Program-made: the position numbers and the translations under genes
Notes under the pieces: model-generated
What the model was told of the DNA's origin: nothing
Database searches by the model: none
Seen by the model: only the letters and a program-made list of their open reading frames with translations
In this document: in pieces, positions 22 through 60,700 of the stretch
How positions within the stretch are numbered: position 1 is the stretch's first letter
Layout of the letters: each line of letters opens with the position of its first letter
Origin: Amoebophrya sp. A120
Lineage: Eukaryota > Protista > Dinoflagellata
Direction of reading: 5' to 3'
Length of the DNA stretch: 64,000 nt
Assembly (NCBI GenBank): GCA_905178155.1
Contig: CAJINV010000007.1
Coordinates: 3,986,265-4,050,264 of the forward strand

Positions 22-3000
22 GATACGACTCCGCAGCTTTGGCGTCTGCCGGCCTTCCCGCTGATACGACTACTCCGTGTTGCACTGTCTACACCGGTGC
101 CGCGTTCCGCGGAGTTGCTTTTGGTAGTGGTAGTAGTTGGAAAGTTCACTATAGCCATTTGATTCACATGGACCCTGCCTCGACGGGCGCCTGGGACGTG
201 ACGCCGATCCCCTACGGCGGATGGATGGATGAAACCGACAATACCCACGACCACTACGGCCCCTGTGCTGTGCTTGGCGCCACGGGCACGCTTTTCACCG
301 CCACCGGCGGCACGTACGACAACACCGTGGACCCCTGCGCTAAGCTGGCTGCGGAGAAAGGAAAGACGGGCTTCCTCATTGGGAACCACGACGACCCCTC
401 TTCTCCGTGCTGTACACTGTATGCGGAGACCCAAGGGGACATGCGGTGGGGAGAAGAGGCGATGCCCACTGGAGGGAGTGGGGTCGCTTTTTTCTACCGC
501 GTGTACAAATTGAACGGCCCGTCGCTGCTTACGGGCGCGAACCGCGTGCCTGCGGGGCTGGTGCCGCTGGCGGAGGCCGACGTCCGCCGGTTGATGGCCA
601 CGCAGAGCTCGACCTTCACGGACCCTTTTTCCGGCAATATCTGCACCGCGACGAACCCATTGCGCCGCCCGTACAATGACGTTGTGCCGGTAGACTTATT
701 TTCGTCGAAGCAGTACTGTGCGGTAACTGGGGCAGCTGCGTCCACAAATACGTTAGGGAAAACTGTCCCCACTACCGCGGTTTTCCCCAAAGAGAAAATT
801 TTTTTTTCGATCCAAGGGCGACCAGAATGAGCCCTGCATAGCCGACCTACTCCGCGAACAGCCGAGACGCGAAGCCAGGTCCTCCCGGTGGGCTGCTTTA
901 TGGAATGAAAGAAATTAATTAGCTAGTGGCGCGCATTAACTATATTTGCAGATCTTGCATCAATATTTATTTCATTTGAGAAAGGCCTTCACGCTCCGGC
1001 TTCCGGGCCCAGCTTGTCGACCATCCCCTCGGGCAGACCAGCATGGCGACGGTCTCCGGGTCCGATCTCCATGAACCTCGTGTAGAACTGTTACCGCGGA
1101 CGAGGTAACAGAGCAGCAGTATCTTCTCCAGCAACGTGTCCGCGATCAAGCAGGCCCAGGTGATGCAGTTAAGCTTCGCCGCCGTACCGCAAACCCGGAA
1201 AAAGCCGACATAACTACAAACATGAATGCAAATTAATCTGTCAAAAAATAATGCTTTAGTTTTTGTGCGCCACTAGCACTAGCTAATTAACTTTTTTTAA
1301 CTTGCATATCAACCTCGGGGATTATCCTCCTAGGAGAGCCGCAGGTGGATGCCGTCCGGGCAGGTTGCGAAGCCGGGCATCGTGGGGCTGCGCCAGTGCG
1401 TGAAAATTTTTTCTCTTTGGGGAAAACCGGGGTAGTGGGGACAGTTTTCCCTAACGTAACAAATAAACCATGGTGGCAGGTGGAATTTTCGGACGGCAGA
1501 CCGCGGCTCTTGGCGGGATTCCTCTGGTTCCGCCACTTCACAAACCTTGACGCCGAGTTCTCGGAGACCGCGGACGCCATGAAGAACGCTGCCGTGTACG
1601 TCAACGGCGTCCAGGTTGCCACGGTCACGACGGTGGACGCCGCCGCCACCCGGGGGCAATGGGTCAACTTCGACCCGCCAGTGTATGGTTCGAAAGTGCG
1701 CTTGGTGGCGGGGAGCGGCTCGACTGGCCGCCTCCGCTTTTGCGGGTTTCACTTGTACCTGAGCGCCGACGCCAGCCTTGCTAGCACCGCATCGCTGCAG
1801 CTGAGTGCTGTTTTGTTGTTATTGTTTCTTTTGGGTCTGAGCCAGGATACGGCCACATCAACGACGGACCCAAGGAATGTCAGCGGGTTCCGCGCCCTTC
1901 CACGCAACGTAGCCGCGGTGGACTTTGCCGCGCCGGCCTTCTATGGCCCCTGCCCCAACCAGGTGGAGAATCACCGGCTTCTGCCGACGAAGGAAGCGGA
2001 CTTCGATGGCTCTGCGGCCAGCTGTGCGGCCAAGTGCTTAGCCCTGGACGACTGTTCTTTGTTTTCCCTGCTGCTACAAGAGCACCCCCACCGTCCTGCG
2101 GTGATGACAACCCTGCTCGGACCGATCGAGCGAAGCCACGCGTTTAGGTACCAACGCGACGGCGCCGAGTGCTGCAAACTGGAGCCCGGGGACGCGGGCT
2201 GGCAAACGAACGCGCCAACAGGCCTCGCGCCCTTCTCGCTGCATGCCTTTCCGAGCCGGACGACCCCCGTCTGCCCCGCTTTTAGAGCCGGCGGCTGCCA
2301 TGACAAAACAAGTTTGAAGATCTCCGAGACGAACACGAACCGAGAAACAGCGGCGACGTGCGACACCACGTGTCGCAGTCTCACCGACTGCGTTGCGTTC
2401 ATCCACGAGGAGACTATGCAGCAGGACAACAAAAACTGCGAATTTTTTCGGACCGGGTGCACCTCTATGAGCTTGACGTCCGATGGTGCCTGGAAGACTC
2501 AGCAGGTTTTCACGCTGGCCCGCAACGAAGCCGAGTGTCTGGATACGCGGGAGGTGCCTCGCATCGCACACTGTCCGAAAAAGCACAATGGTCATTGCTC
2601 CGTTGACTCGAGCGTTTCCAGCAACAACGTGGACAAGCAGGCTATCCAACGGTACCGCGACCGCGCCTACACGAAAGACGAGTGCCGATACCTGTGTAGT
2701 GTGTCCTCCTACGAAGGAGCTAGCTACACTGTGAACACGAGATGCACGTACTTCTATGTGGGCAAGCCAGACGGCTCCTATCCCGGGTTTTGCGACCTCT
2801 TTCGAGGGACCTGCACCGAGGCCAGCAGTGGGGCAGCCGATTGGGAGGGCTTCTCCATGAGCGAGTGCACGGTACGAGGGCTGCAGCTCGCCACGACTCC
2901 ACCTGACCACGTGGGCGAGGAGAGTTGGGTGGGCCACCGCCTGTATCGGTATCCCGACACGCGGCTGCAATTTCGCGTGAACGGCAGTCCGCCACTGCTC

Positions 3001-6000
3001 GTCAGCGAACTCGACTTGCAGAACACGCCCAACTGCGAAGGCCCGGTGGGGGACCATCACTATTACTTTCAGTGCAGCGGCTACCTTCCCTTCGACGCGG
3101 ACGCCGCGGGCTCTGTGGGAAGTCCGAGCGGGCATCGCCTGATTCGGTACGAGATCACCGGGCGCGAACAGGGGCAGACGGGGAAAGACCTCGGGGGCGA
3201 GGTTTTCTTCCGGTCCATGGAAATCCGGTTCCGTCTGGCCAAAACGGATCTGGGGAGCGACGCGTTCGTTTTCCTCGAGCGGGCGGATGGCGTGCGGTAC
3301 GATGTTTTTCTGGATTCGTCAACGAAATCCCTTCGGACCACGGACACTAGTACCGGCACCGCGGTCGATCCACCGTGGGGTGACTGTGGCACCGGCGACG
3401 CCACGTGCGTGACGCATGCGGCAAGCGGCGTCGCCTTGTCACACGCGAACACGGACTACCTGTTGCGCGTTTCGGTAGATGAGGCGTCGCCTCTTAAACT
3501 CCGGGTAACGCTGAACGGACTGTATACCGTGTACGGGCCCTATTTGTCCAAAGACATCGAGCTCCAACTGGGGGCGAAGAGGATCGTGGCAGTCGGGCTG
3601 GCGCCGGGGAGGAATCGGGTGCAGGTTCTCACCCTGCCGCGGGATTTATTGTCATCGACAGCCTACACTACGACGACGTCCACCAGCACGTCGTCGACAA
3701 CGACACTTCCGACGCCGAAACCGTCCGACGCGGCTTTTCTGACCCCACCGGAGGACTTGAAATTGGTGCCCACCCCGGTGAACCAGCACCCCTCTGCCCT
3801 CCAGCTGCGCACGCCCGGCTTCTTCGTGCGGGTGCTGCCGAAGAAGTACGCCCCTGCTGCGCCGTCGGGTGGGAGTGGGGAGTGGGGAATGTACGGCCAG
3901 GACTCGGATTGTTCGGACCTGCTCAGTGGCGGCCCAGTCGCGGGGACCCTGCACTCCGGGTCCGAGACGTGGGACGGATCTCTCAACACCTGCGCAGCCG
4001 CAACCTCTCAGGTCGGCGGCCACTTTTTTGCGGTGCCGAGCATGCAGAAAACCTCCTCGTCCTCGTACACGAACACCAAAAAGTGTTGCGTCATCTACAA
4101 GGACGTTGAAATGGAATATGCGGACACAGACGACGCTAACTATGACTACATCTCCTACCGCCTGGAGGGACCGAACTCGGGCACTTGGGACCTTGGGTTT
4201 TTCGCATCTGCCAACTGCGGCATTCTTGGAAGTGAATTCAGCTACTCCTACTATGGGCGATGCAATGCGCAGGGGGAGCCGGCGTCTATCCGGCCGTGGC
4301 AGCATGAGGCACCGGGCGAAGTGTTTGACAGAGCTACCGAAGGGGTGGAGGCGTGCGCGGCAGCGGCCTACGCATTGGGGTCCGTGACTTTCCAGGTCGG
4401 GCATCGCTCTTCTGGCACGAACTATCCAAATTGCTGTCGCATTTTTCATGGTTTCCCAAAAGACGAGGACAAGTCGTGCTCTGGGGTGTGGAGCCACCAC
4501 CTTTGGACGTACCAGCTGCACGGCAAAGCCGTCATTGTGCCGGACGGGTTCGCGCTTCAGCGGCAGCGGGCCACCGGGACTTGGGACACCTGCTCCACGC
4601 ACGCCCCGGGCGTGTTGCGTCCCGTGACCTACGCCGTGGTGCCCAGGATTACTGCGGCACCGTCTGAGGTGACGCCGGGACATCCAGAGCCAGGCGTCGT
4701 TGTTTCCGGCGTCGTTGTTTCCGGCGACGAAACTGATGTCGCATCCAACCTTATTGACGGAGACTTCACTACTCAGGTCAAGCATGCCATCGATCCAAGG
4801 GGGGTGATGTATGCACAAATTGATCTTGGCACACTTCTGCCGGGCGGTGAGTCCGGCGGCGCGCCGGTGAATTCGCTTTCGCTCATTTCCGAGGTCGCCA
4901 TCACCGTAAACCATCCGTGTGTTGCATTTACATTTGGGGCCGCAGGTACGACCACCTGTCAATCTAATTATGAGAGTGACCCGGCTGCCTTGCTGTACGT
5001 CGCCGTTGCAAACGACACTTGCGTTGGGCAAAGCGACGGCTGCGCCGCCCAGCTGGCCGACGAGGACAAGACGGTCGTTTGCGAAGCGCTGCAATTTGCT
5101 CCGTATCCACTCACGCACCGTTCCCGGTTTTTTAGAGAGGTGGCGCCGGACATGGCAGAGTTTTACGTGCGCTGCCCCGCCCCATTTTATCCCGCCCGGT
5201 TCGCCACCCTCTTCGTGAAAAACGCGATTGACTTCCGGCTCCGAGAGGCCGTGGTGCGGGGGTATGGTCCGTCCGCACTCCTGCGCGACGTGAACGCGAA
5301 GCGGGCCCAGAAAATGTGGGTCGAGTTTGCTGACGGTTCGGAGCGGCGCATCTCCCGCATCGACTTCTGGAACAAGCCCCACATAGATTGGCAGCGGGCC
5401 GCGGACTTGTATCTGGACGACCAACTTATTGGCGGCTTCGAACCAATCGCCGCGTACTACGCGCCTGGCCACCCCGGGCCGCTGCCCGTTCTGGCAACCA
5501 ACCTTACCGGTGCCGAGCATCCTGGAAACGACCCGCCAGGCTCCCTGTCGCAGTTCTACGCCCACGTGTCCCAGCCGGGCCGGATGGTCCGAGTGTCTCT
5601 CGCGGCGCACAAGAGCCGCCTCACCAAGCAGATCCGGATTCAGGTTGATGCGTCGGCGCGGATCCGTACGTGGCAGACGCGAAGCAGCGTGCAGCTGGGC
5701 GCCATCACGCTCTGCGGGATGGAGGTCTACGCGGCGACCACGACAACTACGACCTATCAAATACAAACATGTCTGGGTCTGGAAGAATCCACCACTTGTT
5801 TGTCATGCATCTTTTTCGAACACGACAAGAATGGTCTCTCTCTCTCGTGCACACAAAAGCATTACAGGTTTTGCGCTGGCCTTTTTATGGTTCTCGCGCA
5901 CGAGAAATTCCGTATTTGCGTAGCAAGAAGATTGCGTAGCAAGAAGAAGGCAGCTCTTGGTGCTCATGCAATACAAGTCTTTGCCTTTTCAAGAATCTGC

Positions 6001-9000
6001 ATGACACGTTTCAATTCTTCCAGACCCAGACATATTTGCACTGCATGCGACCACTTCTAGCACCACCGGCGGGGCGAGTTCTTTGATCGCGTTGTCGGAG
6101 AGGCGGCGGCACTTCTACGGCGCGGTAGACATTACCCCGACCGACGAAGCGCAAGCCTTGGCGTCGAGCGAAGACATGCAGATCGAAAGCTTTGCCAAAC
6201 ACCTCATCGATAATGATTTAATGACGTGGGCTCACACGGACGATATGAATAATCGCGCGCAGCGCTGTCCGTGGTATCAAATCGACCTTGGCGAAGTCAT
6301 GAGCGTCCGCGAACTCGAGCTGGTCTTTTACATGCCGCAGTACCCTGAACTCAAAGATCTGCGGCGGCTGTTTTATGTGGTTGCGCAAAACAGTGCGTCC
6401 GACGCTGAGTGGGACATTCGGAATACCGACCTTGACCGGTATCCAGAGGGGAGTGTGCAAAACGATGAGGGCTTTAGGGCGCTGGTTTTGCCCCCCAACC
6501 TGGGACGGTCCACCTCCGGTCTGTGCGTTACTCAGCCGAGCGGCCACTGCCTGGCGACCGCGGGAATCACGACCCCAGCCTGCCCGAAGCCGCACGAGTT
6601 TCACGTCTGTAGGAGGATTCGACACACCACGACCTTTTTCGGGGACGGGTTTCGAAACAACTTCGTCCCGTGGACGCACTCGAATGGGAATCTGTATCAT
6701 AATGTTACCATCGACTGCGCTGGGCGGCCGGGGCAATTTGCCGTCATCGAGCTTCCGGGTGCACCCGCGGATAAAAAGCGGGTGCTCCCGCGCGTTGCAG
6801 AATTTCGGGTGTTTGGTAACGTGATAACGACGACGACAACAACGACGACCACAACCACTGGGACTTGGACGGATCTCGGCGTTGCCGGGGATTTCTTGGA
6901 CCCGATTTGCGCCGCCGAGTACAGCGGCGGATGCGCCGAGTATGCGACGCTAGGGAGCGGCCAGGGGTGGGCGTACCCGACCGCAGTGGGTACCGGGTGG
7001 CGAGGCTGTGACGCCCTGTGTCGCGCCTCCACTGCCGGCACGGGGTCCATCGCGTCGGATTGCTGGGGCTACGGTATCCAGCTCAGCAACGGAGAATGTT
7101 ACATGATGGCCGCCGGCTGCACCGGCAGTTTTCACAGTGTCAAAAACTGGAGAATGTACAGCTTGACGAGAAACAAGGCCTCCTGCATAGAGGCCGCCAA
7201 AGTGCCCGCGGTCGATCCCAGCCGGTGCGCGGTTACGTACGCCGGCCACTGTGTTCCCGGGGGGGCTTACGCGTCGGAACCCCTCTACAAGGAAGCGGCA
7301 GGAACCGACACCGCCGCTACCATCGTCATCAGCTTGTATGAGGACCGGGCGTACAATCTGAACGAGTGCCGCTACTTGTGTGCGAACACGGACGGGTGCG
7401 TGTCGTTCTTTCTGCAAAAAGCCGTCACGAACTCGGTGCGATTTTGCTACTTGATGCGAGCGGGGTGCGGGACGAGCACAACCGACACTAGTTGGGAAGG
7501 ATACGACATCAGCAGTTGTGCGCTAGAGGCGTCGACCAGCACCACGACAACTACAACAACCACGACCACGCCCGCAAAGGAGCGTCTTCTTCTCGATTGC
7601 GGGGTCAGCCCCGCGGAAGCGGCAGCGGCCATCGAGAGCGCCGGCGCGGCGACCGTGGAAATTTTTCGGCGCCGGGGCCTGCACGTGACGACGGTTGGGG
7701 GCAGCCAGTTCGACGGCGAGGTCCCCGTCGAGTTTGCGGACGACGCGGGCCGGTTCGGCAGCTGCGTGTTGATGGCCCCCTTGGCCGAGTTGGGTATCAC
7801 GCTCGACTGGGAGGCCCAGCGCTGGGGGTACCCCAAGGGCGGCGTGCTGGTGCAGGCGTTTCGGCCCCCGGATTTTCAGACCCCTGTAGCCGCCATGGAC
7901 TGGCTGGAGTACGCCCCAGCGGGGGCCCGCCGCGTGAACAAGTACAATGTTTTATTACAATGAAAAATGCCCCCGCCCCGGAACTCGTAAGTTCTCGTGC
8001 AAAGTTTCCAAAGGAAAGCTTTTTGATTTTGGCGTGCATGAAAGGACTACGAGCCTTTCTGATGGAGAATCTTCTGGATTCGCAAGGTATCTTTTGCATA
8101 TACAGATCCGCTTGCCATTGGGCTCCTTTCCAAAACAGGTTTGAGCTACTCAGCATGGAAAATTTGTGATACTGATATATCTATGCAATAGCAAGACGGG
8201 GAGTGTTTCCATTGGAAAGGTTTGCAATACAAATGGCCGCAAGTTCTGTGGTGGGGGCATTGTTCACTGTAATATGTTTCGCGCCACGTTTTTACGGCGG
8301 ACGGCAAAGCGGTTGTGACCGGGAACCGCACCTGTAGTGCCGCGGCTTCGGCGGGGGAGCAAGAAAAGTGCGCCGCGGTGATATGGCAGGGTCAGGCTGG
8401 AAATGAATCAAAAAAGTTGAAATAATTTACGACGGTGCGGGTCGGAACAAGCACCCACCGCCGATGTCTAAGCGGCGCATGACAATAAATTTTTGCAGCA
8501 ACGAAACCCAACTCGCCGCCCTGTTCGGGCAAAAATAAGAAAACCACTCTATAGTCTGTCGTGCTACTTCAGCAGCTCTATCTCTACCAACCCCAAAGAG
8601 AAAGAAACGCTTTTTTTTTAGTTGCAATCGCTCTCCCGTGCCTGCGTTCTCGTACAGGCGACGTTGTTCGCCTTTGCATTTCATATTTATGCAGTGTAAA
8701 GAACCTAAACCACTTGCATATATTTCAATTCTGCAGATTTCATGCAATGCGCTGGCTTCCATAGATGAACGCGAGTGCGTACTCGGCCGCCGGCAATGTG
8801 TACGGCTGGGAAGTGAACATGCCGGTGCCGGAACGCAAGGACAGCACGAAAGCGCGCCAGCTCCTCCTCCGTTTGCGCCTTGGGGACGTACTCACGTTTT
8901 CGTACCGCCTGGGCAGCGGGGGCGGGCACCAGCTCAGCATCCACGACCTGGCGGTCACCGCGAAGTATCACGTGGCCGCGACCTTGACCGAGCGGGCGGA

Positions 9001-12000
9001 GGACCGGGCGACCTTTCCCTGGGTATTCCAGGACCGGTTTGAGTCCTGCGACGTCACCTGCCGGGACCTGGGGCGGCGGTGCATTGCAGAGGAAATGATG
9101 AAGGTGGATTCCTTGGACAAAGTGAACGAGATCCTGTTCGCGACCGCCGGCCTCAACTGCACTTCTGGTGCCGGGCGTGCGTACGCAAATACTCCGTGTC
9201 TGAATTTGGCGGCAGGATATGAAGGGATGTGCTTCTACCGGGATTCTTCGCACAGCTTGCATGCAATTGACCCAGCCGTCGGCTCGACATGTTGGGCCCA
9301 AGCCCCATATGACTCCCGCCTGACTTTGTGCTATTGCCAAAGATTGGCTGTGCCTCGCGAGGCAACGCAGGTCCAGCTTTTCAAGTCTTTCCACAAAAAT
9401 TGGGTACTGGCTGCGCGGAAAGACTCCTGCAACACCGCCTGTCTGAAGAGCGGCAACCGGGTGTGCAATAGCGAGATGCAATCACAAGTAAACACGCAAG
9501 ACCGCTTCCAGAGGGCCGTGCAACTTGCTACCGGCATCCCGGAGTTTGCCTGCCCCACGGGTCCGTTAGGACACTTGCCGGACGTTCGTCTCGCTGCGCA
9601 TACTGGCGTGCCAATGATCGGCATCGGACGAGCCAACGGAGGGCAGCACTATGGAAAGTGTTTCGTCTACTCGGGCCCGCATTCCTACAACACAGGGCAC
9701 TCCTCGCAGGGCGCCGCTACCGAGGGGGAGATATGGCGTTCTCAAATGTTACATTCTCAACTATTACATAAATTCGTAATGCAAGAATGGCAAAAGTGAA
9801 AGGAAGGGGGAAGGTTGCGCCTTTTGCATTACAGGTTTGGAGCTGATTGCAATGCTATCTAGTGCGTCGAGAGCTTGTCACGCGGAGAAGGCTTGGACTT
9901 GTGAAAAGTGACAGGGTTTTGCATGGCCAACCATGTAACAGCTGAGAGCGATCGCTTGAGAGCCCGTGATAGAGTTTTGCATGGCCAACCATGTAACGGC
10001 TGAGAGTGTATCGCTTGAGAACCCCATAGGAAAAGACCCCGGGGTACAGCAGTTGCCGGTCCAGTGCTGTCCTCGATGATTGGGGTAGACACCTCTGCTA
10101 TTGTATGCATTGCAATACGAATATATGCCTGGGCGTGGGCCTGGAAAAATGCAGATGATATGAGTTGCCCCGTTGTTTTTGGATCTGCCAGAAGGTATGG
10201 AATGCATGCAGAGCGTGGCAAGAACAGGCTCCGTGCTCGTGCCGGGGACTTGCACTCCCTGCCTTGGAGTAATTTGCATGAGAAATTCTAGCCTTTCCAC
10301 CGAGAGTGACGGAGATTAGAGCTGCGCATCGACTTCTGCTGACTATGCGCGACAGGAGGAGACGCTTCGCTTTTCCAAAATTTCTTGCATGACATCACGT
10401 TTGCTGCATCCTGCTTCCAGAGGACCCACACATAATTCATGTTCGCAATGCATATGCGGCGAGAACCTGGAAGAATCCTACCTGCGAGCGCGCAACTACC
10501 ATCGGAACCTTCTGAAGAACGAACCCTATGAAAGCACGCGGGACTGGCGCGACTCCTCGCCGGTGGTGTCACGAGGCCGCGCGTCCAAGTGGATTCTGGG
10601 GGGGGCCGGGCGGTCCTGCTACCAAACGTGTCGCGACGAGGGGCCGGGCCTCTTCTGCGACACCGACGAGCGCATGGCACTAGACGGGGACGCCCGGCTT
10701 CGTGCGGTGCTGAAGGGGCCTGATATAAACCGGCCGGACCTGTGCGACTCGTCCTGGACCGTTGTCGGAAAGCCAGACGGCGGGGTTCCTTCCGTTGACC
10801 CAACCACGAAAGAATGTTACTTCGTGTATGCATTGCAAATACGTGTCGTGGGTCGGCAAATTTGCGCTGCTCCTGATATTGGTGGCAATTATTCTCAGGC
10901 CTGCATGTACGGAATAGAATAAACAGCATGTTGACAAGTTTAGCTTGTCATGCTCTGGCTTCAGCCTTAGGAGTAGGACGAATGAATTCGCAAGAAGCTG
11001 GGGGCACATGATATCCTCAATCTTCCGGAATTAGCACGACAGAAAAAAGCTAGCGACTCTTGCTCCTCGCATTCATGAATCACGGATCTTGTTGTCTTCG
11101 AACTCATGCATGACAAAGTCCACCGGGGGACACAGACAATAACAAATTTGCAATGCATATCGTTGCAGGGAATGCAAGTGCGACGGCTGGCGAAAAGGTC
11201 TGGACAACCCCCGCAAACTGCTACGCTATTCCCAGTATCAAACTCAAGAATGTCTTTTTCTGGGTCTGGAGGAGATAAACAGATGACACTTGTTGTCGTT
11301 CAGTTTTTGCATCTACTGCAAAGTAGTGCAAAGCGATGAGGTCTGAAATTATACAAACGGAGACTGTGGTGGTGGTCAAACTCTGTCAACACGTCCTCTC
11401 CAGACCTAGTCTGCATGAGAGATGGCGCTCTCCCCCGAAGACAAAAACCGTGTTTCTTTTGCTGACCACTACGCATTCAATTTTTACAGAGATTTGATTC
11501 ATTCGCTTTACCTGTTCCAGAAATGAATCCGCATGACAGGTTCCTCGCAGCCTTCCAGAGCCGGACATATTTGTAATGCATACCCAGAGTTGCAACGTCC
11601 CCCCGGCTGCCAGTTTGCTTCTGCAGGATCCCGCGTCTCAGCGACACTTCCTACGCCGTTCCCGACCGCGCATTCCTGTTGCGCTCCAATGATCCGCACT
11701 GGGTGTTGTCGGATCCGGGGGAAACCTGCGTGGTCACCTGTGCTAAGTCCAACCGCCGCATGTGTGATCCCACGAAACAATATGCATTGCAAAAGTACCG
11801 GCATTGTACTAGTTATAAAACAAATGAAATTTTATTTTTTTAGAGAGAAACAAATTTGTCACGCTACTGCGATTAGTGCAAGCGCGATACTTTTGCAGAG
11901 GATATATAAACCGCCCTGTCGCATGTCAGCAAAGTTCTGGACGCGGTCGCCAGCGCGCTCGGGTTGATATCGAATGTAAACATATCTGGTCGGGGCGAGT

Positions 12001-38892: not shown

Positions 38893-38999
38893 CTGCAAAA
38901 TATTTTGCGTTGCAAAATATTTTGGAGCTGCAAAATATTTCGAGCTGCAAAACATTTCGAGCCGCAAAATATTTCGAGCTGCAAAATATTCCGAGCTGC
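38893..38999. repeat. 17-bp tandem repeat gctgcaaaatatttcga running into the gap
   Basis: About six visible units. Confidence 0.85.
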
Positions 39000-39751
39000 N
39001 NNNNNNNNNNNNNNNNNNNNNNNNNNNNNNNNNNNNNNNNNNNNNNNNNNNNNNNNNNNNNNNNNNNNNNNNNNNNNNNNNNNNNNNNNNNNNNNNNNNN
39101 NNNNNNNNNNNNNNNNNNNNNNNNNNNNNNNNNNNNNNNNNNNNNNNNNNNNNNNNNNNNNNNNNNNNNNNNNNNNNNNNNNNNNNNNNNNNNNNNNNNN
39201 NNNNNNNNNNNNNNNNNNNNNNNNNNNNNNNNNNNNNNNNNNNNNNNNNNNNNNNNNNNNNNNNNNNNNNNNNNNNNNNNNNNNNNNNNNNNNNNNNNNN
39301 NNNNNNNNNNNNNNNNNNNNNNNNNNNNNNNNNNNNNNNNNNNNNNNNNNNNNNNNNNNNNNNNNNNNNNNNNNNNNNNNNNNNNNNNNNNNNNNNNNNN
39401 NNNNNNNNNNNNNNNNNNNNNNNNNNNNNNNNNNNNNNNNNNNNNNNNNNNNNNNNNNNNNNNNNNNNNNNNNNNNNNNNNNNNNNNNNNNNNNNNNNNN
39501 NNNNNNNNNNNNNNNNNNNNNNNNNNNNNNNNNNNNNNNNNNNNNNNNNNNNNNNNNNNNNNNNNNNNNNNNNNNNNNNNNNNNNNNNNNNNNNNNNNNN
39601 NNNNNNNNNNNNNNNNNNNNNNNNNNNNNNNNNNNNNNNNNNNNNNNNNNNNNNNNNNNNNNNNNNNNNNNNNNNNNNNNNNNNNNNNNNNNNNNNNNNN
39701 NNNNNNNNNNNNNNNNNNNNNNNNNNNNNNNNNNNNNNNNNNNNNNNNNNN
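39000..39751. other. Assembly gap (N run)
   Basis: Run of n. Confidence 1.
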
Positions 39752-40889: not shown

Positions 40890-42267
<1,378 letters not shown>

Positions 42268-48787: not shown

Positions 48788-51700
48788 ATGGGAAGCAAGA
48801 ATAAAGCGAAGCAAAAGCAAAAGCAAAAGCAAAAGCACAAGCACAAGGGGACCGCTTCGGTTGGCGGAAAAAATGGCGAAAAGAAGGAAACACCAACCGC
48901 AGGTGCTTTGTCTACGACGCCCTCACTTCCTGCCTCGTCGTCGACCGCGGCGTCCAACAAGGAAGCGGAAAGCATTAAACTTTCTGATGGAAACGTAGGT
49001 CTTGTCGAGGGGCAACAAGAAGAGGGTACTAGTACTAGTAGTTCTTCTTGCCCGTCCTCAAGCTCCAAAAGTATGGAGGACGAAGAAGATGTTGAACCAA
49101 GCCAGGCATGCTCCAAGAGCCAGGAGGAGACCACAGCACCTCTCGCTCTCCAGCAAAATCCCGTGGCGAGGAGCGAGAGCGAGGACAGCACGACAGAACA
49201 AGTATCAGGACAGCACCAGGAACACGACCAGCAGGAGGACTTGGTGGAGACGAGTGCTGGAGGGGCTGCACAAGCGGAGGCCATCACTGAAGCTGCCGAA
49301 GAAGCGGAGGAGGTGGATTACATTGAACATCGCGACAAAGAACGTCGAGAAGAACCAGAGCGGCTTGACGGTTCCTTTTTTTCCTGTAGTGAAGACGGTG
49401 AGGATGCCCATGCCACTGAACAAGTTGAGGCAGATCCTGAAAGTCTTCCTGTGCAAGAAGAACTAGATGACACGACTCCTGTTGAAGAGACCAGCTTCGC
49501 CACGCCCACGCCCGAAGAAACGGATATCATCTGCGAGAACAATGATACTACTGAGGAACGACCAATGCTGGGGGTACTAGCACAGCAAGAAGAACGAAGT
49601 CGCCCCCTCGCGCCGCTTGAAGTAGTGGAGCTAGGGGACGAGGAAGACAAAGCGAGTGGCAACAGCCCGGAAGTGGAGCGAGGGCCAGGGGACGAACACG
49701 AAGACAAAGCGAGTGGCAACAACCCGGATGATGTGGAGGTGTACGACCAAGAAGATCTCCTGCCCCCGACGCCGGACGTCGATGCGGAGTGCAGCAGCAG
49801 CCCCGGGGCCAAGGCGGCAGGTTGTACAACTGCGTCGCAAGAAGAAGACGAGGAAAGAGACGCGGACCTTCTGGTCGTGAGCAAGAAGATCCCGCCGGGC
49901 GCTGCGGAGGACATGATCAGCGACAATCACCCTCTTGCTGCGGAGGACTCTTTGCGGACCGCAACTTCGGACGAGAACAAGTGCACCCAGAACATTGAAG
50001 AGCCCGAGGATCTTGTAACCTGCAAGAGCACGGCAGCTGGCACCGGCAAGAAGGACAATATTGAACGTGACCAAGTAGTTCAAGAGCAACAGCAATTTGA
50101 AAAAAAAGCAGATCAAGATAAGAACGATACGGATACTCCCTCGGCCAACACTGCGAGTAACAACCAGGAAAATGAATACAAAACCACTACTGTGTCCTCC
50201 GAAGAAGAACAAGAAGAGGAAGGACATCGTGTATACGAAAACGAAGTGGGCAGCGACTGCGACGTAAATCGCCTTCTCGCGATGCACAAATTGTACGGCC
50301 ACCAGGTGAAGTTTTTTTACAAAAGGAGGGGCGGACCGAACGGGGACACAAAAATTCCCGTGCTTCCAGAAGTCCTTTGGAAGAAATCAAAGCAGAGTTC
50401 TTGTTCTGCTACAACTACTTCCGGGACGGCCGGCGACGAGGACAAGACGAAGACCAACACCGCTGCGCGACATCTTCCAGGCCAGAAGGTCGAACCTCAA
50501 ATAACGGAGTCTGATTCTGAAGCTTTGAATAACCATGCCGCGGTTGTCGTGAACCTCTGGAAAGAAGCTGGCTGGAAGCCGACAAAAAAGGTTATTCTTG
50601 GAAAAGAGAGAAATGCTGCAGATCATGTTGACAACAAGCAGCAGCAAACAAAAATCTACCTTGCTGCAAATGGAAATGCAAATGGAACAAACCCGTCTAC
50701 CTCCACTCCTACGGCCTGCTCTCCCTGCTCCGCTACAACCGAAGACGACCACGACGACGACGACGTCGACCAGCTCGAGCTCTCACTCTCACCGCATAGT
50801 TCTTGTCTGGAGGGAAGTACAACAGAGAATGAAGCGGCCGCAGAGCGGGACGACCCTGAGGACGGGAAAGCGAAAGATGCTAAAGTGCGAGATGAAGAGC
50901 AGGGGGAACAGAAAGAAACAGAGAAACACCTACATACACCTGGACAAGAGCAACTTGCCTTTCAAGATGATGAAGCTGGCCTTCTTCACACAGAGGAGGA
51001 TAGTACTGAGAAGGGTGTAGCTCCTCTCGTGAACAAGAAAGCGACTCATAAACGTAGTGAAGGTGTGCCGACGGTTCCAAATGTTGATGAGGTGAACAAC
51101 ATGAATCAACAAGCTCTACCAAGCTATTTCGAGCTGCCGACCGGGCAGTTACCGCCGTGGTTTCTGGCGTTGCAGTACCGCTCTAACGATCCGGCGGATG
51201 ACGAGGGGTTTGTAGAGGTAGAAGTGGATATGGAAGACAGTGACGACCAGGTGGTGGTTCTGAAGAAGGTGTGTAGCACAACTTCGAGTGAAAATATTAA
51301 GTCTGCGACAGCGAGTACGGTAGAAGATCATGAAGAACTACAAATAACAAGTTGCGAAACAAGCAAGAAGATCAAACTGCGTCCCCGCCGTGGTCCGCTG
51401 TCCACAGTTCCGGAAATGCTCCGGCGGACACTAGCGGAGGTGAAGGAATTTAGGAACTCGATTGTGAAGCGGAAACCGGAAGACCGGCCCCGGGAAGTCG
51501 TCAGCAAGTATGGAAAGGTTATTGTCGAATTGGGTAATTTCATCCGCAAAGAAAAGAACAAGCTACTGGATCTGCACAAAAAAGCGGTGGAGAAAGAGTT
51601 CGGTTACGCCTTTCAACAGGAGGACACCAATCCTGACGTTCTACTTCCCAAGGAGGGAGGAGTGCAGGTGCAGCCGGGGGGCGAAAATACAACTACGGAG

Positions 51701-54700
51701 GTGGAAATGAATGCTGCAGAGGATCTTCGAGCAGGTCGTGCTGGTACTTCTTCGTCTAACACATCAACTACGTCTGCTCTACTGGAAGATGAGGAAGCTC
51801 TTCATGTGACAGCTCTTTTGGATCCTCGCCGCTACGAGCCGCGACATGTGCGTCGCCGGTTGGTGCGCGACATTCCGGAGGCCCACTTGGTGGAGGAACT
51901 CGGGAAGTTGGTGGTGAAGGATTGTACTCGGTGCGCCACGTTGGTAAAGAAATACGACTTGGACCAGCTGTTGGGGCCCCTGAATGTGCGAAAAATATTC
52001 GAGCTGAATCCGCTCTGTTACCTGACCACCGAGACCGGCAAGAAAGGGTGGGAGGAGTTGAAAAAGCAGTATCTTCAAGAGCTTGCTCAGCACGGACCCG
52101 TCGGTTATCAAGTACAGGTCGTTGACTATGGTTCTTTTATTCTTGCGACGCCAGAATTTGATGCCGCGGTCGATGTGATGGAAGATGATCGCAAGAACGG
52201 CACAACAAGCCCGGCGCGAGGGCTCGTGCTGCGCAAAGATGAAACAGAACAGCAAGGATCAAGCTTATCGTCCTCGACTTCATCAAGTTCAACAAAAGAC
52301 GAAATAAAAGAAAAAATCCGCAGCGTAAAAAAAGTATACTGCCTCTCGAAGGTGGACTGCAAGCTGATGCAACTGAAGTTCCCGAACTTTCCTTATGCCA
52401 GTCTCTGCTTGGACGCAGTTCGTGTCAAAGATGTCGACAAAGTAGTGCGCAGCGACGAGGGAAATAATAGAAAGGTCGTCGACGAAGACGAGTTTTTTCC
52501 GGCTGAAAACACGACCTTTCGCTTGGAGGAGTGCACAGGAGCTGAGGAAGAGCTGGCGGACGGTGACGAGGAGTCCGACTTGGTAGACGAACAGCCCGAG
52601 GTGGCGGAGATGGTGTTTGCAGCAGCTGCGGAGCTGGAGTTACACAAGGACCTCTGTTACAGTTACGAAGCGACGGAACAGGTCAGGGAGTCACTGGCTA
52701 AGCTGACGGCAAAAATTACTAGGGCTGTACAAGACGATGAACAAGAAGGAGCGCAAGATGAAGCGGCAGCAGCGGCTCCCGCGCCGGCTGCAGCAGCACC
52801 CCAAAGTAGTAGAACTGCAGTTGTTGCGCAGCATCAACTACCGGAGAAGATCGCGTGGCGTAAGGAAAAGAAAAAAAAGAAGGGACCGGTAGGAGCGGCG
52901 GGCTCCTCTTCTGCAGCTTCTTCTAAAAATGCAGGAGCAGCACCAGCTTCAGCTACAGCTACTTCGGGTGGATCATCATCGGGTACTAGTAGCTCGAGCT
53001 CTAGTGTTGCAGGACCACGTGCGCCGATCGATTTTATGAAGAAGGGGAGCAAGAAAAAGATGATCAACTTTTTTTCCGAGGCCTACTGTGTTCCGAGCTG
53101 GGTGCGGAGAACTCCCGGCACGGCCTTCGCCCGCTACTTTCCAGATTTGTTGTTGCCCGAGGCTGCGCAGGTGCAGCACATCAAGACGGAAAGCCTGAAA
53201 CTGGTCACGGACACGTGGGACGATAATTTTCGCTACGGCACTAGCGAGGACACTCACGACCTTGCGAAGCGCACGCCTCTGACCCCGGAGGCGGTCTGCT
53301 ACCCGGAGAAGGGCCTTGTCACCACCCTGGGGCAAAATCGGGAGTTGGTCGAGCGGTGTCTCCCCCTATCGCAGTGGTCTTCGATTTATGCATTGCAAAA
53401 TCAAAATAAGTATCGTTGTACTATACTTCTAGTATCAATCACTTTACAGTGCTGAAGATTTCTGCTCAAAGGCTGAAACGATAATTTGTCATGCATGATC
53501 GCAACTAGTACGAGTAGGAGTACAACGATCGATGCTTTCGCAGGGCATCCGCTTTACCACAGTGCGGCGCTGAATCTCTTCTGGGACATGTACGGACGAG
53601 ACGGCATGCTCGGAACCAGTAAGTTGACGGTCAAGCAGATGTTTGACATGGCCTGCACAAAAAAGATGAAATCCTACCTCGATTTTGCCTCGACGACGAA
53701 ATTTGAGGTTGACCAATCGTGCCACACGGCGCTGGTGGCCACCTGCGAGCAGACGCTGTACCAGGTTTGCCGGTTTGTACAGCGGACTTTGGTCACCACC
53801 GGACAGAAGCGGACCTTGGCCTTACGGGCAGGTCTGTATAACGAGAACTACGTGCCGAACCCGGTGTGCCTCTATTTTTCGAAAAACGCACTTTTCGCCG
53901 AGGTGAAACTGCGCCTGGCGCTGTGGTTCTTCGACTTTTACGAGAGAACGTTCGGAAAAAAGGCTGCGCAAGACCTGAAAGTCCAGCTACAGGCGAGTTT
54001 GTTGCAAAAATTCTTGACCTACTGTGAGGAGGAGAAACTCAAAGTGCTGAAGCAGGGACGAGGAGGACAAACACCAACCCGTCAAGAGCCCTCAGGCAGC
54101 ACGGATGAGAAAGAAGTAGAAGTCCTCGGGGATCATGAAGAGTTCGACAACTTTCGCAAGGTGGATTTACTTGGTCAAGAAGGCGGAGACGTGGGGAATG
54201 TGAAGCTTTACTTCACAGCGGCGAGTCAGATCAGCTGCAAGAACCCGGCAGACGCGAGGATCAACGCGAAGAACATGACTGGAGCGAGTGCGGGTTGTTT
54301 TTACGTGTGCAAGAAAATAAGTGCTGCAGCAGCAGCACCTACCGGGGCGACAGCTACGTCATCTGTAGACGATGAAACATATCCTGTGCAAAAGTATCGT
54401 ACTACGTAGAAATTTCGTGACAAATAATTACCGCAGCATGAGATTGAGAAAGAAATGCGGATTTGCTTTGAGAAAGAGGCTTGCGTTTGTCTTACATGGG
54501 CGCGATTACTACGAGTACGATACTCTTGCAATTCATAAAACATCGATTGGCGTAACGTCCAATTCTACTATTGCCCCGTCAAGCGGATCAAGAAGTAGCT
54601 CCAGTTCTAGCTCAGGTTCTCCCTCATGTTCATCTTCCTCCTCCTCTTCGTCCAGCGCCTTTTCCGCGTGCACCTCCTCCGCCGCATCGTCGAGCAGCAC

Positions 54701-57700
54701 GGTCTATGCATTGCACACATGTAGTCTGGGTCTCAAACAAAACAAGGATGCAAGAAGGTTCGTCATGCTTGTCTCGCATGACTGAAGAGCGTGCGACGCG
54801 TGTCCAAGGAGCGGCGACCCTTTTGCTTGTCAACATGCACGACGCAGCTTGTCTTCATTCGGAAACCGAAACACCAAAGTGCAACACTAAGCCGCGCAAA
54901 TATTTCTCATGCTTACAGAGCATCAGCATTCTTTCACTACAAGGCCGCAGCTTATGTCGCGCAGTGGGAGGGCGAACGAGTGGACAGGGGGGAAAGAAAA
55001 TTCGCCAGAGGATGGGCACGGGGAAAGATTTCTGATGCAGGGTGGGGCCAAGCATCTGCGCCGTTTCTTGTTGAAAGAACCAATGTGGTGCGCCATGGAG
55101 CCCGTGGCCCCCGTCCTTGTGCGAGCGTGAGGACCTCGCCCGCATTGGGCGCGCGCCCTAGGCGGCAAGCCTTAGGCCCAACAACGCCAAGCGCGGCAGC
55201 GGGCGGGCGCCACTGGACGGGGGAAGCAAGAAAGCAGGAGAACAGCCCGCGCCATGCGTGGCATTGGCGCGTGACGCCCCGCCCGCGCGTCTGTTGTGTG
55301 GCCCGTCCGTGAAGCCTGCCGGTGCGCCCCGCGCCGGCCGCTCCTGCACGCCTTGGCGCCCCCACTCCTTCTTCTCCCGCGCGCAGCCTTGCAGAGCAGA
55401 GGCTTGCTGGGGCCCCTGCCGCGCGCGTGGATACATAGAGGACGGGCGCCGGGGCGGGGCATCGCTAGCTTTCGAGGCGCAGGGGCCCACCACCCTCCCC
55501 CCGCACCCCCGGACAGCAGCGGCGCCCCACGCGTTAGCTTGCATGCAATCCGTGCCGCCCCCGGGTCTCCTCGCGCGCAGCTTCCAAGAGGCGGCGGACG
55601 GTGGCGCCCTCTGTCTGCCCGTCTCCTCGTGAAGAGGGGGAGGGCTCCGGGGGAGAGTGTTGGGCTGGCAGCTGCTCGCCTGGTGGCGGGGCGCGGCTTT
55701 GTTTCCCCCGGGGGCGGGCTGATGCTTCCCGGCTTCCTTCGCGGCCCCCTCGTGTTTCCCGCTTTCCATGTGCTTCCCGCCTTCCCCGTGCTTCCCGCCT
55801 TCCCCTTGCTTCCCGCTTTCCCCGTGCTTCCTGCTTTCCCCGTGCTTCCCGCTTTCCCCGTGCTTCCCGCTTTCCCCGTGCTTCCCGCTTTCCCCGTGCT
55901 TCCCGCTTTCCCCGTGCTTCCCGCTTTCCCCGTGCTTCCCGCTTTCCCCGTGCTTCCCGCTTTCCCCGTGCTTCCCGCTTTCCCCGTGCTTCCCGCTTTC
56001 CCCGTGCTTCCCGCTTTCCCCGTGCTTCCCGCTTTCCCCGTGCTTCCCGCTTTCCCCGTGCTTCCCGCTTTCCCCGTGCTTCCCGCTTTCCCCGTGCTTC
56101 CCGCTTTCCCCGTGCTTCCCGCTTTCCCCGTGCTTCCCGCTTTCCCCGTGCTTCCCGCTTTCCCCGTGCTTCCCGCTTTCCCCGTGCTTCCCGCTTTCCC
56201 CGTGCTTCCCGCTTTCCCCGTGCTTCCCGCTTTCCCCGTGCTTCCCGCTTTCCCCGTGCTTCCCGCTTTCCCCGTGCTTCCCGCTTTCCCCGTGCTTCCC
56301 GCTTTCCCCGTGCTTCCCGCTTTCCCCGTGCTTCCCGCTTTCCCCGTGCTTCCCGCTTTCCCCGTGCTTCCCGCTTTCCCCGTGCTTCCCGCTTTCCCCG
56401 TGCTTCCCGCTTTCCCCGTGCTTCCCGCTTTCCCCGTGCTTCCCGCTTTCCCCGTGCTTCCCGCTTTCCCCGTGCTTCCCGCTTTCCCCTTTTCCCCGTG
56501 CTTCCCGATTGCCAAATATTTTGGGGGTTGCCGAATTTTTTGGGGATTGCCAAATATTTTGGGGATTGGGAAATGTTTTGGGGATTGCAAAATATTTCGG
56601 GGATGGCAAAATATTTTGGGGATTGCAAAATATTTCGGGGACTGCAAAATATTTCGGGGATTGCAAAATATTTTGGGGGTCGCAAAAGATTTCGGAGATT
56701 GCAAAATATTTCGGGGATTGCAAAATATTTCGGGGATTGCAAAATATTTCGGGGATTGCAAAACATTTCGGGGATTGCAAAATATTTCGGGGATTGCAAA
56801 ATATTTCGGGGATTGCAAAATATCTCGGGGATTACAAAATATTTCGGGGATTGCAAAATATTTTGACGATTGCAAAATATTTCGGGGATTGCAAAATATT
56901 TCGGGGATTGCAAAATATTTCGGGAATTGCAAAATATTTCGGGGATTGCAAAACATTTTGGGGCGGGAAATATCGGCCGTTGGCCGTTTGCGATTTGTTC
57001 GTTGGCCGTTGGCCGTTTGCGATTTGGGCGCTTGCGATTTGGCCGTTGGCCGCTGGCCGTTTGCGATTTGGCCGCTGGCCGTTTGCGATTTGGCCGTTGG
57101 CCGTTTGCGATTTGGCCGCTGGCCGTTTGCGATTTGGCCGCTGGCCGTTTGCGATTTGGCCGCTGGCCGTTTGCGATTTGGCCNNNNNNNNNNNNNNNNN
57201 NNNNNNNNNNNNNNNNNNNNNNNNNNNNNNNNNNNNNNNNNNNNNNNNNNNNNNNNNNNNNNNNNNNNNNNNNNNNNNNNNNNNNNNNNNNNNNNNNNNN
57301 NNNNNNNNNNNNNNNNNNNNNNNNNNNNNNNNNNNNNNNNNNNNNNNNNNNNNNNNNNNNNNNNNNNNNNNNNNNNNNNNNNNNNNNNNNNNNNNNNNNN
57401 NNNNNNNNNNNNNNNNNNNNNNNNNNNNNNNNNNNNNNNNNNNNNNNNNNNNNNNNNNNNNNNNNNNNNNNNNNNNNNNNNNNNNNNNNNNNNNNNNNNN
57501 NNNNNNNNNNNNNNNNNNNNNNNNNNNNNNNNNNNNNNNNNNNNNNNNNNNNNNNNNNNNNNNNNNNNNNNNNNNNNNNNNNNNNNNNNNNNNNNNNNNN
57601 NNNNNNNNNNNNNNNNNNNNNNNNNNNNNNNNNNNNNNNNNNNNNNNNNNNNNNNNNNNNNNNNNNNNNNNNNNNNNNNNNNNNTGGCCGTTGGCCGTTG

Positions 57701-60700
57701 GCCGTTGGCCGTTGGCCGTTGGCCGTTGGCCGTTGGCCGTTGGGCGGTGAGCGATTTCGCAAATCGCGACAGCTTTAAAAAGTTTGAAAAGTGTTAAAAA
57801 CTTTTCGGCGTGGGCGATTTTCCTCCCTGTTGCAAAATTTTAACTGCCCCCGCTCAGCAATAGGAGTTATAATTCACAACTCAGAATTACAAGCTTCCAG
57901 ACCCAGACACATTTGCATCTGATAAAGTCGCGCAGCTTACCGCTCTGCCGGAATTTGCGTTGGACCGGATGGACCACATCGCGGACCGCTTGTGTCATTT
58001 CGTGTACACGTAAGAGAGTGCACACCTCCTCCTCCCCCGCATTTGGATGGCACCCGCAGCTCTTGCATGACAAATTTGCGACCGATCGCAAGGCTCTCTC
58101 GGCTTCAGGAGTCTGTCACGGAAGCAGCGCCATAGGGCAAAGGTAGTGCTCTGTATTTTGCGTGACAAATGTTTGTGAGGGGAAGTTGTGCACTCTGATA
58201 ACACCCAGGTGGTGCATGAACTGCACGCGGAGGAGAGCATCAGACTGATGGCGACCTGCGTCTTCGCAAACCGGCACTTCATCGGTATGCATTGCAAAAG
58301 TATCGTAAACTCGCCGAAATTGTATCAGTGCAGGTTGCCTCTGCAATGCAATAATGAATGTAATGTAAAAATTCAGTTGAAGAACAAAAAGTAGATTTGT
58401 GATGCACATCTGTAAGGATTACAATAGTCCGAGGATAACTTCAATCTTTTGCAATTCATAATCGACATTGAGCGGCAAATCCACGAGCAGACGCTGGAGT
58501 TTCTCGCGGAGGAGAACAAGCGAAGAAGCTGTCCGACCTTTGCCAACGTGCTCGACTTATCCTGTGTAAAAGTATCGTACTCGTAGTAATCGCAGTCATG
58601 CATTACAAATCTCACTCCTAACCTAAATATCCATTACAAATTCCATTTTTCATGCTGAGGGAATTTGTCATGCGATTTCTACTAGTGCGTTGCTTTTGCA
58701 TTTCATACGACTGGAATTACTCCAGGGCAAGGGAGCAGGTGCGGGAAGAGATCTTGCGGGACGAGCGCAAACTGGTCGGGATGGAGGTCCTTTCAAAGTC
58801 CTCTGCGGAGATCGAACAGCACGAAGATAAAACGCGGACAGAGGGGATAGATGTTGAATCGGAAGATGCTGCTGGCGGTGAACAAGGAGCGCAAGAAGCA
58901 GATGTTGATGAAGAGAAACCAAAAAGACTAGAACGCCGAGAAGATGGTGCATTTTGGAAACTACAACAAGACCCAGGAAATAAAGCCATCAACATCGACG
59001 ACAAACAACGTGTAACCACACTGAAGGCGCCCAAACAAGATGCGGCCACGCTCACAGCAGTGAATGAGCACGGCGAGGCTGCTCTCCACAGCCGGAAAGT
59101 AGCTGCTGCAAAAGAAGGCGAGGAGGTGCATTTCATCTCGACAGAATCAGGCTCCGTGTTAGACAATCTCTTGACAAAAATGTTGGACGGCGACCATTTT
59201 GTAGACAAGATAATCAGCCACGAGAAAAAGCTGACGCGGGAAGAAGAAAACATGTTGTTGCTTCTTTCGCACACTGATTCAGCATCAGCTGCAAATCTTC
59301 CCACGGAGTTTTCTTCTTTCAAAGCGAAGCTGGAAAAAGTCGCCGGAAAAATACATCCAGCCGCGGCCGCTGCAGCAAGTGCTAAAGCTGAACGTGGTAG
59401 GAACAATATCAAACAAGTTGAGTCGACGTCGCGTGGTGGAGCTGGTGCAGCTACATCTGCAGGGAGTAGTACCGCAGCGTCTTCTTCCGCAGCAGTGGTT
59501 CCTGCAGATGATGAGGAGCACAGACCTCCACAGGAGACAAGTGACGCCGGTGCACTGCCGCTAGAGCAGAGCAAGCAAATAAACACGACAAGCAGCTCCA
59601 GCAGCACGGCTGGCAGTGCAACCACTGGCAAGCTGAGCAAAACGCAGAAGAAGAATCTGCGGAAGAAACGGCTGAAGCTGGAGCAAGAGAAACTGGAACA
59701 AGAGCAGCACCAGCGGCAGCAGCAAGAGATAGAAGAACCACTATTAAAAGAGGAAGGAGTAGATTCCTTATCGGTGCTTGAAGACGAGGGCAGCAAAAAA
59801 GTGATCGCGGCAGATGAGACTACTTCTGCCACGGATAGCACAATGGAAGATCCTGTAGATGGCGGGAAAGAGGACAAAGACAAAAAAGCGTTGATACAAT
59901 CGATCCTGCAGAATGGCGGTGATAATATTGAAGAATACATTTTAAAGGTCCTCCAGAACGATTCATCATCTTCTGCTGCTAGAATCAGAAGTATGATTGA
60001 AAATAAAAGAAAAACACTGCCGGATGCTGAGTCTAGAAGTTTATCTCCTCCGGTACTAGAAGAAGTACTAGATAATTCGAGTTGTCCGGGCACGACCAGC
60101 ACGACCGGCCGAACCACCAGCATTGTGCTCTTCCAGAAGTCAGGCAAAGCTAAACTACAGCCTTCGTGTTCTACGAAAGACGTCGTACCAGCTGAACAAG
60201 CTCCTGCTCGCAGTATTCGGGACGAAATGCAAGAGGTCTACAATGCCAGTTCTCCCAGCGGTACTAGCGGCCGGTCCGCAAGGATGCGGAAAGTGATCGG
60301 CAAGGTGCTCCTCGGAGGTGGAAAAAGAAAAACCAGGGACGAGGTGCTGGATCTTCCCGTTAGTCACTTCGGGACCAGCACCGAGGACGCCATGATGACT
60401 TTTTTGATCAATCACTGTCAAGAGGAGCTCGACAGCATGTCCTCTGACGAAGAGCAGGAAAAGACACCGGACTGCGTTGTTTTGCTGCACTCCGAGAAAT
60501 TGGGACGTCGCATGGTCCTAACGAAAAGCGACATTTCGAACGGCTTTCTCCGCTTGAACAAAGTAACCGAGGGCGACTACGTCCAGACCGAGCTGCCGCC
60601 ACCCGGTGTCGAAACGGAGAAGGCGGCGAAGTTGGTAAACAAATTTTGGAAATGGCGGGACTGGGATCCTAAGCTGTTCTCGAGTACCCCGGACGCGCTC

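Follow-up and report, generated by a model that had tools for sequence, protein, structure and literature searches.

How does a transcript lose introns that carry no GT-AG boundary? This question is raised by a stretch of 64,000 nucleotides from the marine parasite Amoebophrya sp. A120 (GenBank assembly GCA_905178155.1, contig CAJINV010000007.1, positions 3,986,265 to 4,050,264 of the forward strand; hereafter the window, in whose coordinates all positions are given), where three giant genes are interrupted by elements that end in terminal inverted repeats (TIRs) and are flanked by a 5-bp duplication. It concerns more than 60% of the introns of these parasites, and a fixed rule makes it directly testable. 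The reading towards which we lean, with modest confidence, is that the elements are transposon-derived, non-autonomous introns cut at one register, with a modified spliceosome taking its measure from the ends of the element.

Probable removal of the elements from transcripts

The elements were located independently by a script that demanded TA at the left end, after the window had been read and scanned for inverted repeats (motif-free loose TIR scans gave 552 and 511 rows, mostly chance matches). This gives 32 TA-started inverted-repeat cassettes of 109–710 bp, plus one of 3,220 bp among them, which agrees with the 114–715 bp (one of about 3.2 kb) of the initial annotation once 5 nt are added. 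Ten lie in gene 1, 15 in gene 2 and 6 in gene 3, so that the earlier placement of all elements in the three giant genes stands for 31, while one (47089–47256) sits in a fourth gene. Left ends start with TAT in 29/32, with A at positions 11–14 in 18–26 of the 32, and the right end is TA in 27/32, where the initial annotation had given most. The 5-bp flanking repeat is perfect in 15 elements, while 11 show a single mismatch and 6 at least two; the earlier tally of 15/12/5 is thus reproduced for the perfect class, and for the others if the element at 25905 is given 26230 rather than 26227 as its last base. The flanks agree with an identity of 0.82 at a duplication length of 5 bp vs. 0.24–0.33 at lengths 2–4 and 6–8. 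A GT-AG placement is possible for 1 of the 32 elements and an AT-AC placement for two.

Taking out each element with 5 further nucleotides, that is, with one duplication copy, leaves frames of 2,986, 5,256, and 3,886 amino acids without stops (the last one leaves the window) and rebuilds the motifs LTVKEHL and NPQILLLDEPGVGID together with both Walker A motifs, in accordance with what the initial annotation had proposed. Cutting the element plus 3, 4, 6, or 7 nt breaks the frames, as does retention of any single element (31/31), and the Pfam ABC_tran profile continues across the element at 20168, with profile positions 1–76 before it and 76–137 after it.

The element list and the expected removal were fixed before comparison with assembled sequencing runs, and parts of the window left uncovered were not counted as evidence. 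Four runs of one sample (X3–X6), available as contigs only, are guessed to be RNA, which is not on record. Their contigs support the removal of 22/32 elements. Between 7700 and 26800 they provide joints for 14 of 16 elements and a loose 14-nt end for one more, with none for 15212, and one 6,585-nt X3 contig skips seven elements in 26805–34400, four of them with both edges visible and the others (31978, 32425, and 32698) through a 171-nt gap of exactly the predicted length. The skip length equals the element plus 5 nt in every case. A further run, X1, is probably DNA because its depth is flat (42–46x); its contigs bridge eight of the elements skipped by X3–X6 with 0 differences, and it is possibly the window's own source. 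The elements are repeated, as their bins reach a summed X1 contig depth of up to 32,739 vs. about 45 on exons, a sum that is not a copy number. With the elements kept in DNA-like contigs and skipped in probable-RNA contigs, the earlier claim of removal from RNA without a fixed GT-AG boundary is borne out, and we consider removal at the RNA level very likely.

Two other origins of the joints have to be weighed here. The elements could be excised precisely from DNA in some life stage, in the manner of the internal eliminated sequences of ciliates, with transcripts copying the edited genome. TA ends and TIRs would suit this, and the missing record of X3–X6 as RNA and the different samples behind the DNA-like and RNA-like runs leave room for it. 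It is nevertheless very improbable, as the eight elements skipped by X3–X6 are present in X1 contigs, as the X3–X6 cover is patchy and exon-limited with empty bins, and as end selection is polarised by the direction of transcription (see below). To our knowledge Amoebophrya has no separate germline nucleus in which such elements could be kept.

A hairpin with a direct repeat is also the classic setting for template-switching artefacts of reverse transcriptase, and the evidence for the joints is all of complementary-DNA type or of unstated type; the genes might then be pseudogenes or use other splice sites. We judge this the least probable of the explanations considered. Joints with 0 nt of shared sequence occur (21178–21300 and 25904–26231), joints are also seen at weak hairpins, removal yields frames of 3,000–5,000 amino acids where retention destroys them, and other sites of the GT-AG kind are limited to the single element mentioned above.

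A single register for the cut

Most joints can slide within the duplication, so that the position of the cut must be sought in informative junctions, namely those with mismatched flanks where the joint cannot slide freely (n = 12; the 22099 junction rests on the loose end and the 32698 junction on one edge plus length). The only offset common to 12/12 informative junctions is −1, with a chance probability of 2.6e-5 for this agreement, or 1.6e-4 when any of 6 offsets is allowed. The intron therefore takes in one base outside the left TA and four beyond the right end (N-TAY...ATA-NNNN). When the TIR axis is found without assuming TA or a duplication, this register is admitted by 16/20 joints and the next best by 12. 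We are highly confident that the cut follows one fixed register.

The same junctions bear on whether it is the duplication that directs the joining, the cut varying in position within it. Such a mechanism would be consistent with the 26/32 elements that have at most one mismatch, with the sliding joints, and with a figure legend according to which the splice sites vary in position with respect to the hairpin (Farhat, 2021, PMC7789003). We consider it very unlikely, since the common offset would be a coincidence (p = 1.6e-4) and since the two elements without any flanking duplication, 21179–21296 (0/5 matching bases) and 25905–26227 (1/5), are pinned at exactly −1/+4 all the same. The duplication is thus not a splice signal, and the earlier view that it defines the introns has to be given up. 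It is a product of insertion; because the offsets of 1 and 4 add up to 5, exactly one duplication copy is removed, and the encoded protein would stay the same after a fresh insertion.

The earlier statement that there is no fixed terminal signal survives for the +1 base and the dinucleotide at the 3' end, and falls for T at +2, A at +3, and A-T-A at −7 to −5, which are fixed. The intron at 25904–26231, whose right end has decayed, is a GT-AG intron (328 nt) that also fits the −1/+4 register, a coincidence that lies at chance level in the larger set described below; it is a useful test substrate.

As far as we found, the fixed register, the +2 T rule and the subterminal motif treated below have not been published before, while the element class itself is known. 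They are not stated in the literature text searched; figures, subscription papers, and some supplement files lie outside this scope and may bear on novelty.

Candidate machinery at the intron ends

To see which terminal positions are kept, we turned to elements outside the window. The pattern of one family fetched 50 loci, of which five chance matches were dropped (L001, L020, L027, L030, and L033) and 45 kept. Their elements are relatives of those in the window at 66–87% identity, which places the loci in a related lineage; the window families thus recur in another lineage (L002–L050), though the published families have been called strain-specific. Among 38 complete family copies the 5-bp duplication is perfect in 30, has one mismatch in 4 and is absent in 4. 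A symmetric detector, which recovers 22/32 window elements with 1 false match and finds 0 matches in 122,062 shuffled nucleotides, gives 177 elements in 232,845 nt, of which 157 could be oriented by the coding strand (a method that is right in 32/32 window cases) and 20 could not.

The duplication bases are unbiased among the 157, without AG or purine preference, and we dropped a preference for A or a purine at the first exon base, as the A seen in 19/32 window elements is matched by only 45/157 elsewhere. The TIRs pair at positions 1–3 and 11–13 in 94–100% and at positions 4–7 in 39–65%. Left positions 1–2 deviate at 1/314 sites vs. 8.6–17 expected from duplication decay, with the reservation that the detector favours these positions. 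The A at −7 on the right deviates in 0/157 and its left partner in 8/157 (sign test p = 0.008). With a detector that ignores positions 1–3, TA termini are found at 94–95 of 96 ends, and position 3 deviates 5 times on the left vs. 0 on the right among 96, one probable false match aside; in the window the corresponding counts are 2 and 0, plus one element with both changed. Transposition is blind to the direction of transcription, so a polarised A at −7 points to RNA processing.

Given these constraints, the intron would take the form N-U-A-Y...(N7)AAA...UUU(N7)-A-U-A-N-N-N-N. Its 5' end may be a GUA-type donor that has kept the +2 U but given up the +1 G, and with it the 3' AG. In the second splicing step these two signals are in mutual contact. 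The polarised A at −7 would be the branch adenosine, at a set distance from the 3' cut; its conservation makes it a tentative candidate for the branch point. The retained +2 U, the joint loss of +1 G and 3' AG, and the polarised A at −7 are together best fitted by a modified spliceosome, and the balance tips slightly towards the spliceosome as the catalyst. Possible, and rather doubtful in all its particulars, is the detailed version in which a spliceosome lacking U1 has given up both the +1 G and the terminal AG, retains the +2 U alone, uses the element end as a ruler, branches at the A three bases inside the right TIR and cuts six bases on.

Published data are in line with parts of this scheme. 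The non-canonical motifs of Table S4 in Farhat (2021, PMC7789003) have T at +2 in all 9 predominant A120 and all 9 A25 motifs, a pattern to which aligner preference may add, and the A25 repeats start with TTA. Nearly all spliceosomal proteins and U2, U4, and U6 were found there, and U1 was not. Fixed short branch distances are known from Yarrowia (−6) and from Giardia and Trichomonas (−8; positions counted by us from the distances in PMC2483917).

The same register could also be read by dedicated, non-spliceosomal machinery, a Euglena-like nuclease and ligase, which would recognise the terminal stem or motifs and release a circular or linear intron. The nonconventional introns of Euglena obey an offset code, 5'-N3CDG...CH'GN5-6|R, whose trans factors are described as unidentified (PMC12501133), and the near-complete pairing at TIR positions 1–3 and 11–13, the TA at both ends, the lack of a branch consensus and of AG, and the missing U1 (PMC7789003) would all suit such a system. 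Against it stand the lack of a G·U excess, the predicted unpaired ends of five elements whose removal is confirmed by contigs (8382, 11968, 24951, 25905, and 27581), and the +2 T conserved in both strains, which matches a spliceosomal donor. The A at −7 is moreover kept when it is unpaired (A·C), whereas the stem-compatible G·U version occurs in 0/157. We regard machinery of this kind as possible at rather low probability.

Several observations count against the modified spliceosome, or weaken the evidence on which it stands. The asymmetry at −7 is one of 16 positions examined and is not significant after correction for 16, the element at 749–1458, alone in the window, has G at −7, and no U2-type branch consensus is found around −7. 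T(−6) and A(−5) show roughly the conservation of +2 and +3, something that a stem reader outside the spliceosome would need as well. Pairing at the RNA level is not supported, as G·U and A·C mismatches number 83 vs. 85 in the 157 elements and 9 vs. 23 in the window, and end pairing is predicted in only 17/31 window elements; GT..AG in register occurs in 2/157, which is chance level. In the assumption-free scan 4/20 joints miss the register, in cases where the best segment is weak or the inner TIR part is shifted by an indel, and where the terminal pairs fit in the TA-based location. No transposase was found in the window elements or the 45 loci. The RNA status of X3–X6 is a guess for a single sample, X1 may be the window's own source, and 10/32 elements are without read evidence. 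The evidence consists of contigs and includes neither a lariat nor an excised intron nor raw RNA reads; the raw RNA runs X10 and X11 had 0 reads matching the window and hence provide no test. On the same counts we rejected G·U enrichment as proof of an RNA stem, an A·C excess, which is confined to the window and is not repeated in the 157, and an enrichment of GT..AG in register.

Should the N-TAY...ATA-NNNN rule hold, it would explain why such insertions do no harm and are free to multiply into the tens of thousands. It would also allow gene models to be fixed with single-base precision, and would show how much relaxation the chemistry of splice sites tolerates.

Insertion, host genes, and known systems

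The elements share a further feature inside their ends. Allowing one mismatch, the window contains 30 copies of the near-palindromic subterminal motif TTTGTCATGCA, all of them within elements. In the 157 elements it sits 30–50 nt from both ends; with at most two mismatches it is found at 27–66 nt from the 5' end in 116/157 and from the 3' end in 113/157 elements, mirror-symmetric, vs. 2/409 background tiles. The symmetry suggests the DNA-binding site of a shared transposase, and the motif may be a putative transposase-binding site common to many families. In the detailed version given above, one transposase family with such a common site would insert anywhere in a gene, in either orientation, and leave the protein unchanged; an integrase-type (Ginger-like) transposase is the likely agent. 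The initial annotation had suggested a search for long copies that encode a transposase, of which there is no trace among the 45 loci, the only ones searched: none holds an element above 800 bp with a perfect repeat. Pfam gave no transposase or integrase in 8 open reading frames (ORFs) of the two large repeats described below and 5 ORFs of the 749 element (3 + 11 proteins searched), a viral-contig scan for the end of one family gave 0 matches, and Rfam gave 0 matches.

Gene 1 (3..12541, forward strand, as are genes 2 and 3 and all elements listed here) encodes a giant surface-type protein with weak PAN/F5_F8 matches, and its 5' end may precede the window. Probable-RNA contigs are continuous over 12541–14570, about 2 kb beyond its stop, suggesting a long 3' untranslated region. 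In the following, flanks are given left/right, and the offsets allowed by a joint are those of the intron start counted from the left T. The first of its 10 inserts, 749..1458 (ACAAA/ACAAA), has a 50-bp TIR with TAC...GTA ends that resembles published family 38, is without the subterminal motif, and carries a second inverted-repeat unit with TTAATTAGCTAGTG ends nested at 915–1290, which encloses a GC-rich 300-nt piece without Pfam match. It is followed by 5755..6047 (CGACC/CGACC, right end TG) and by two elements whose joints skip 327 and 352 nt, 7953..8274 (TGTTT/TGTTT) and 11236..11582 (CCCAG/CCCAG), respectively. Joints allow −3..0 at 8382..8763 (GGTGA/GATGA, weak TIR), −5..−1 at 10827..11159 (TCGTG/TCGTT), −2..0 at 11781..11904 (AACAA/TATAA), and −1..0 at 9732..10028 (GGAGA/GGAAA), 10104..10454 (TATTG/TGCGG), and 11968..12336 (GTTGA/GCTTA).

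Gene 2 (15120..34314), whose first ATG is a candidate start, encodes a giant ABC transporter with two ABC_tran domains and ABCA-like motifs, and holds 15 inserts. The very high copy element 15212..15447 (ACACA/ACACA) has no joint among the X3–X6 contigs. Joints of the expected length skip 289 nt at 18292..18575 (ATCGA/ATCGA, of a family shared with 31978), 114 nt at 20168..20276 (TGAAA/TGAAA, interrupting LTVKEHL), 162 nt at 21651..21807 (GAAAA/GAAAA), 169 nt at 28345..28508 (AGCGC/AGCGC), 170 nt at 31188..31352 (GCTAC/GCTAC), and 174 nt at 33614..33782 (CACGA/CACGA). The duplication-free elements 21179..21296 (CGGGC/GTACG) and 25905..26227 (GAACG/ATAGA, without duplication in the TIR register) are pinned as introns 21178–21300, with CT..AC ends, and 25904–26231, with GT..AG ends. 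Joints allow −3..0 at 24951..25213 (GAGGA/GCGGA), −5..−1 at 27581..27808 (CAGTC/CAGTA, right end GA), and −2..0 at 22099..22365 (CAACA/CAGCA), where the joint is seen only as the 14-nt loose end, which matches 22371–22384. Removal is inferred via the length of the skipping contig for 31978..32292 (GAGAA/GAGAA, right end GA) and 32425..32653 (TCGCA/TCGCA, interrupting the NPQILLLDEP region), and the TAC-started 32698..33040 (TGGGA/TGGAA) has a joint with its 3' edge at 33045 that allows −1..0. Well-preserved elements without flanking duplication, seen at 21179–21296 and in loci L015, L017, L034, and L050, may have arisen by recombination, by chimeric assembly, or by insertion accompanied by a deletion in the flank.

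The element of the fourth gene, 47089..47256, is flanked by GAAAG/GAACG. Gene 3 (48788..64000), a giant gene whose product has no Pfam match and which continues beyond the window, has 6 inserts: 53387..53549 (CGATT/CGCTT, right end TC), 54380..54537 (AAACA/AAACA), 54705..57924 (CGGTC/AAGTC), 58011..58200 (ACACG/ACACC, TAA start), 58286..58460 (ATCGG/ATCGA), and 58558..58707 (CGACT/CGACT). Apart from a nested 2.9-kb repeat (54937–57874), the 3.2-kb insert 54705..57924 is an ordinary element of about 290 bp. This repeat and a copy at 37090–39943 are GC-rich, with tandem arrays and an assembly gap, are 79–88% alike at their ends, and have no Pfam or Rfam match; the nested copy is flanked by TTCAC/TTCAC and the other is without duplication. 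A small GTPase-like gene, recognised by eye at 40900–42260, has ordinary GT-AG introns, so that both intron types coexist, and some 40 nt from the end of its third intron the subterminal motif is present in decayed form.

Among known systems, the elements agree best with the introners of A120, a class that the initial annotation had recognised as known from Amoebophrya: TAT starts, seven variable bases and then an A run, 5-bp repeats, and removal without GT-AG. Farhat (2021, PMC7789003) describes TAT-started repeats with seven variable bases followed by AAA, direct repeats of 3–5 nt (5 bp in Fig. S19), a mean length of 240 nt, RNA support, and no transposase inside, all of which is likewise the case here, and gives no transposase for A120. 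That account sees no clear signature in the terminal dinucleotides and has the splice sites vary with respect to the hairpin, whereas here the register is fixed at −1/+4, the +2 T is constant, the duplication is dispensable, and a subterminal motif is shared; the words "subterminal" and "lariat" have 0 matches in its text. A120 introner family 38, filed as Ginger with a 5-bp target-site duplication (Gozashti, 2025, PMC12130899 supplement), shares the TA/TA termini, the duplication length and the roughly 50-bp TIR seen in 749–1458; it has ORFs with Copia/Gypsy likeness, where no window element gave a Pfam transposase or integrase match, and its splice sites are given as mixed, with no register. 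IS3EU/GingerRoot elements have TA..TA termini and 6-bp duplications and Ginger2 a 4–5-bp duplication (Kojima and Bao, 2023, PMC10045372), so that the window elements, placed here without a transposase, share their ends with the former and their duplication length with the latter. Membership in IS3EU/GingerRoot, a likeness drawn earlier from the TA..TA ends, was rejected on duplication length, since a 6-bp duplication is perfect in 0/32 (identity 0.24) and the duplication is 5 bp.

With respect to removal, the GT/GC donor and AG acceptor of U2 introns are absent, as base +1 and the final dinucleotide vary freely (GT..AG in 1/32 and 2/157) and only the +2 T is kept; compared with ciliate eliminated sequences, the elements are present in one DNA-like run, X1. 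The nonconventional introns of Euglena likewise have an origin resembling miniature inverted-repeat transposable elements, inverted motifs at fixed offsets and free terminal dinucleotides, and their offset rule has been tested by knock-in (Nomura, 2025, PMC12501133). Their N3-CDG...CH'G-N5-6|R code is not that of the window, where offsets of N1 and N4 and TAY/ATA replace N3/N5-6 and the CDG/CHG motif, and our 157 elements show nothing of their preference for a purine at the exon start. The non-canonical introns of Fritillaria borealis are also transposon-derived, with TIRs and a duplication, and are removed by the U2 spliceosome (PMC13326754, PMC11282704); there AG-AC/AG-AT ends dominate and U1 is kept, whereas here both terminal dinucleotides vary largely without constraint and no U1 was found for Amoebophrya. 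If the rule proposed here is true, it would stand as a third offset-based splicing code alongside those of Euglena and Fritillaria.

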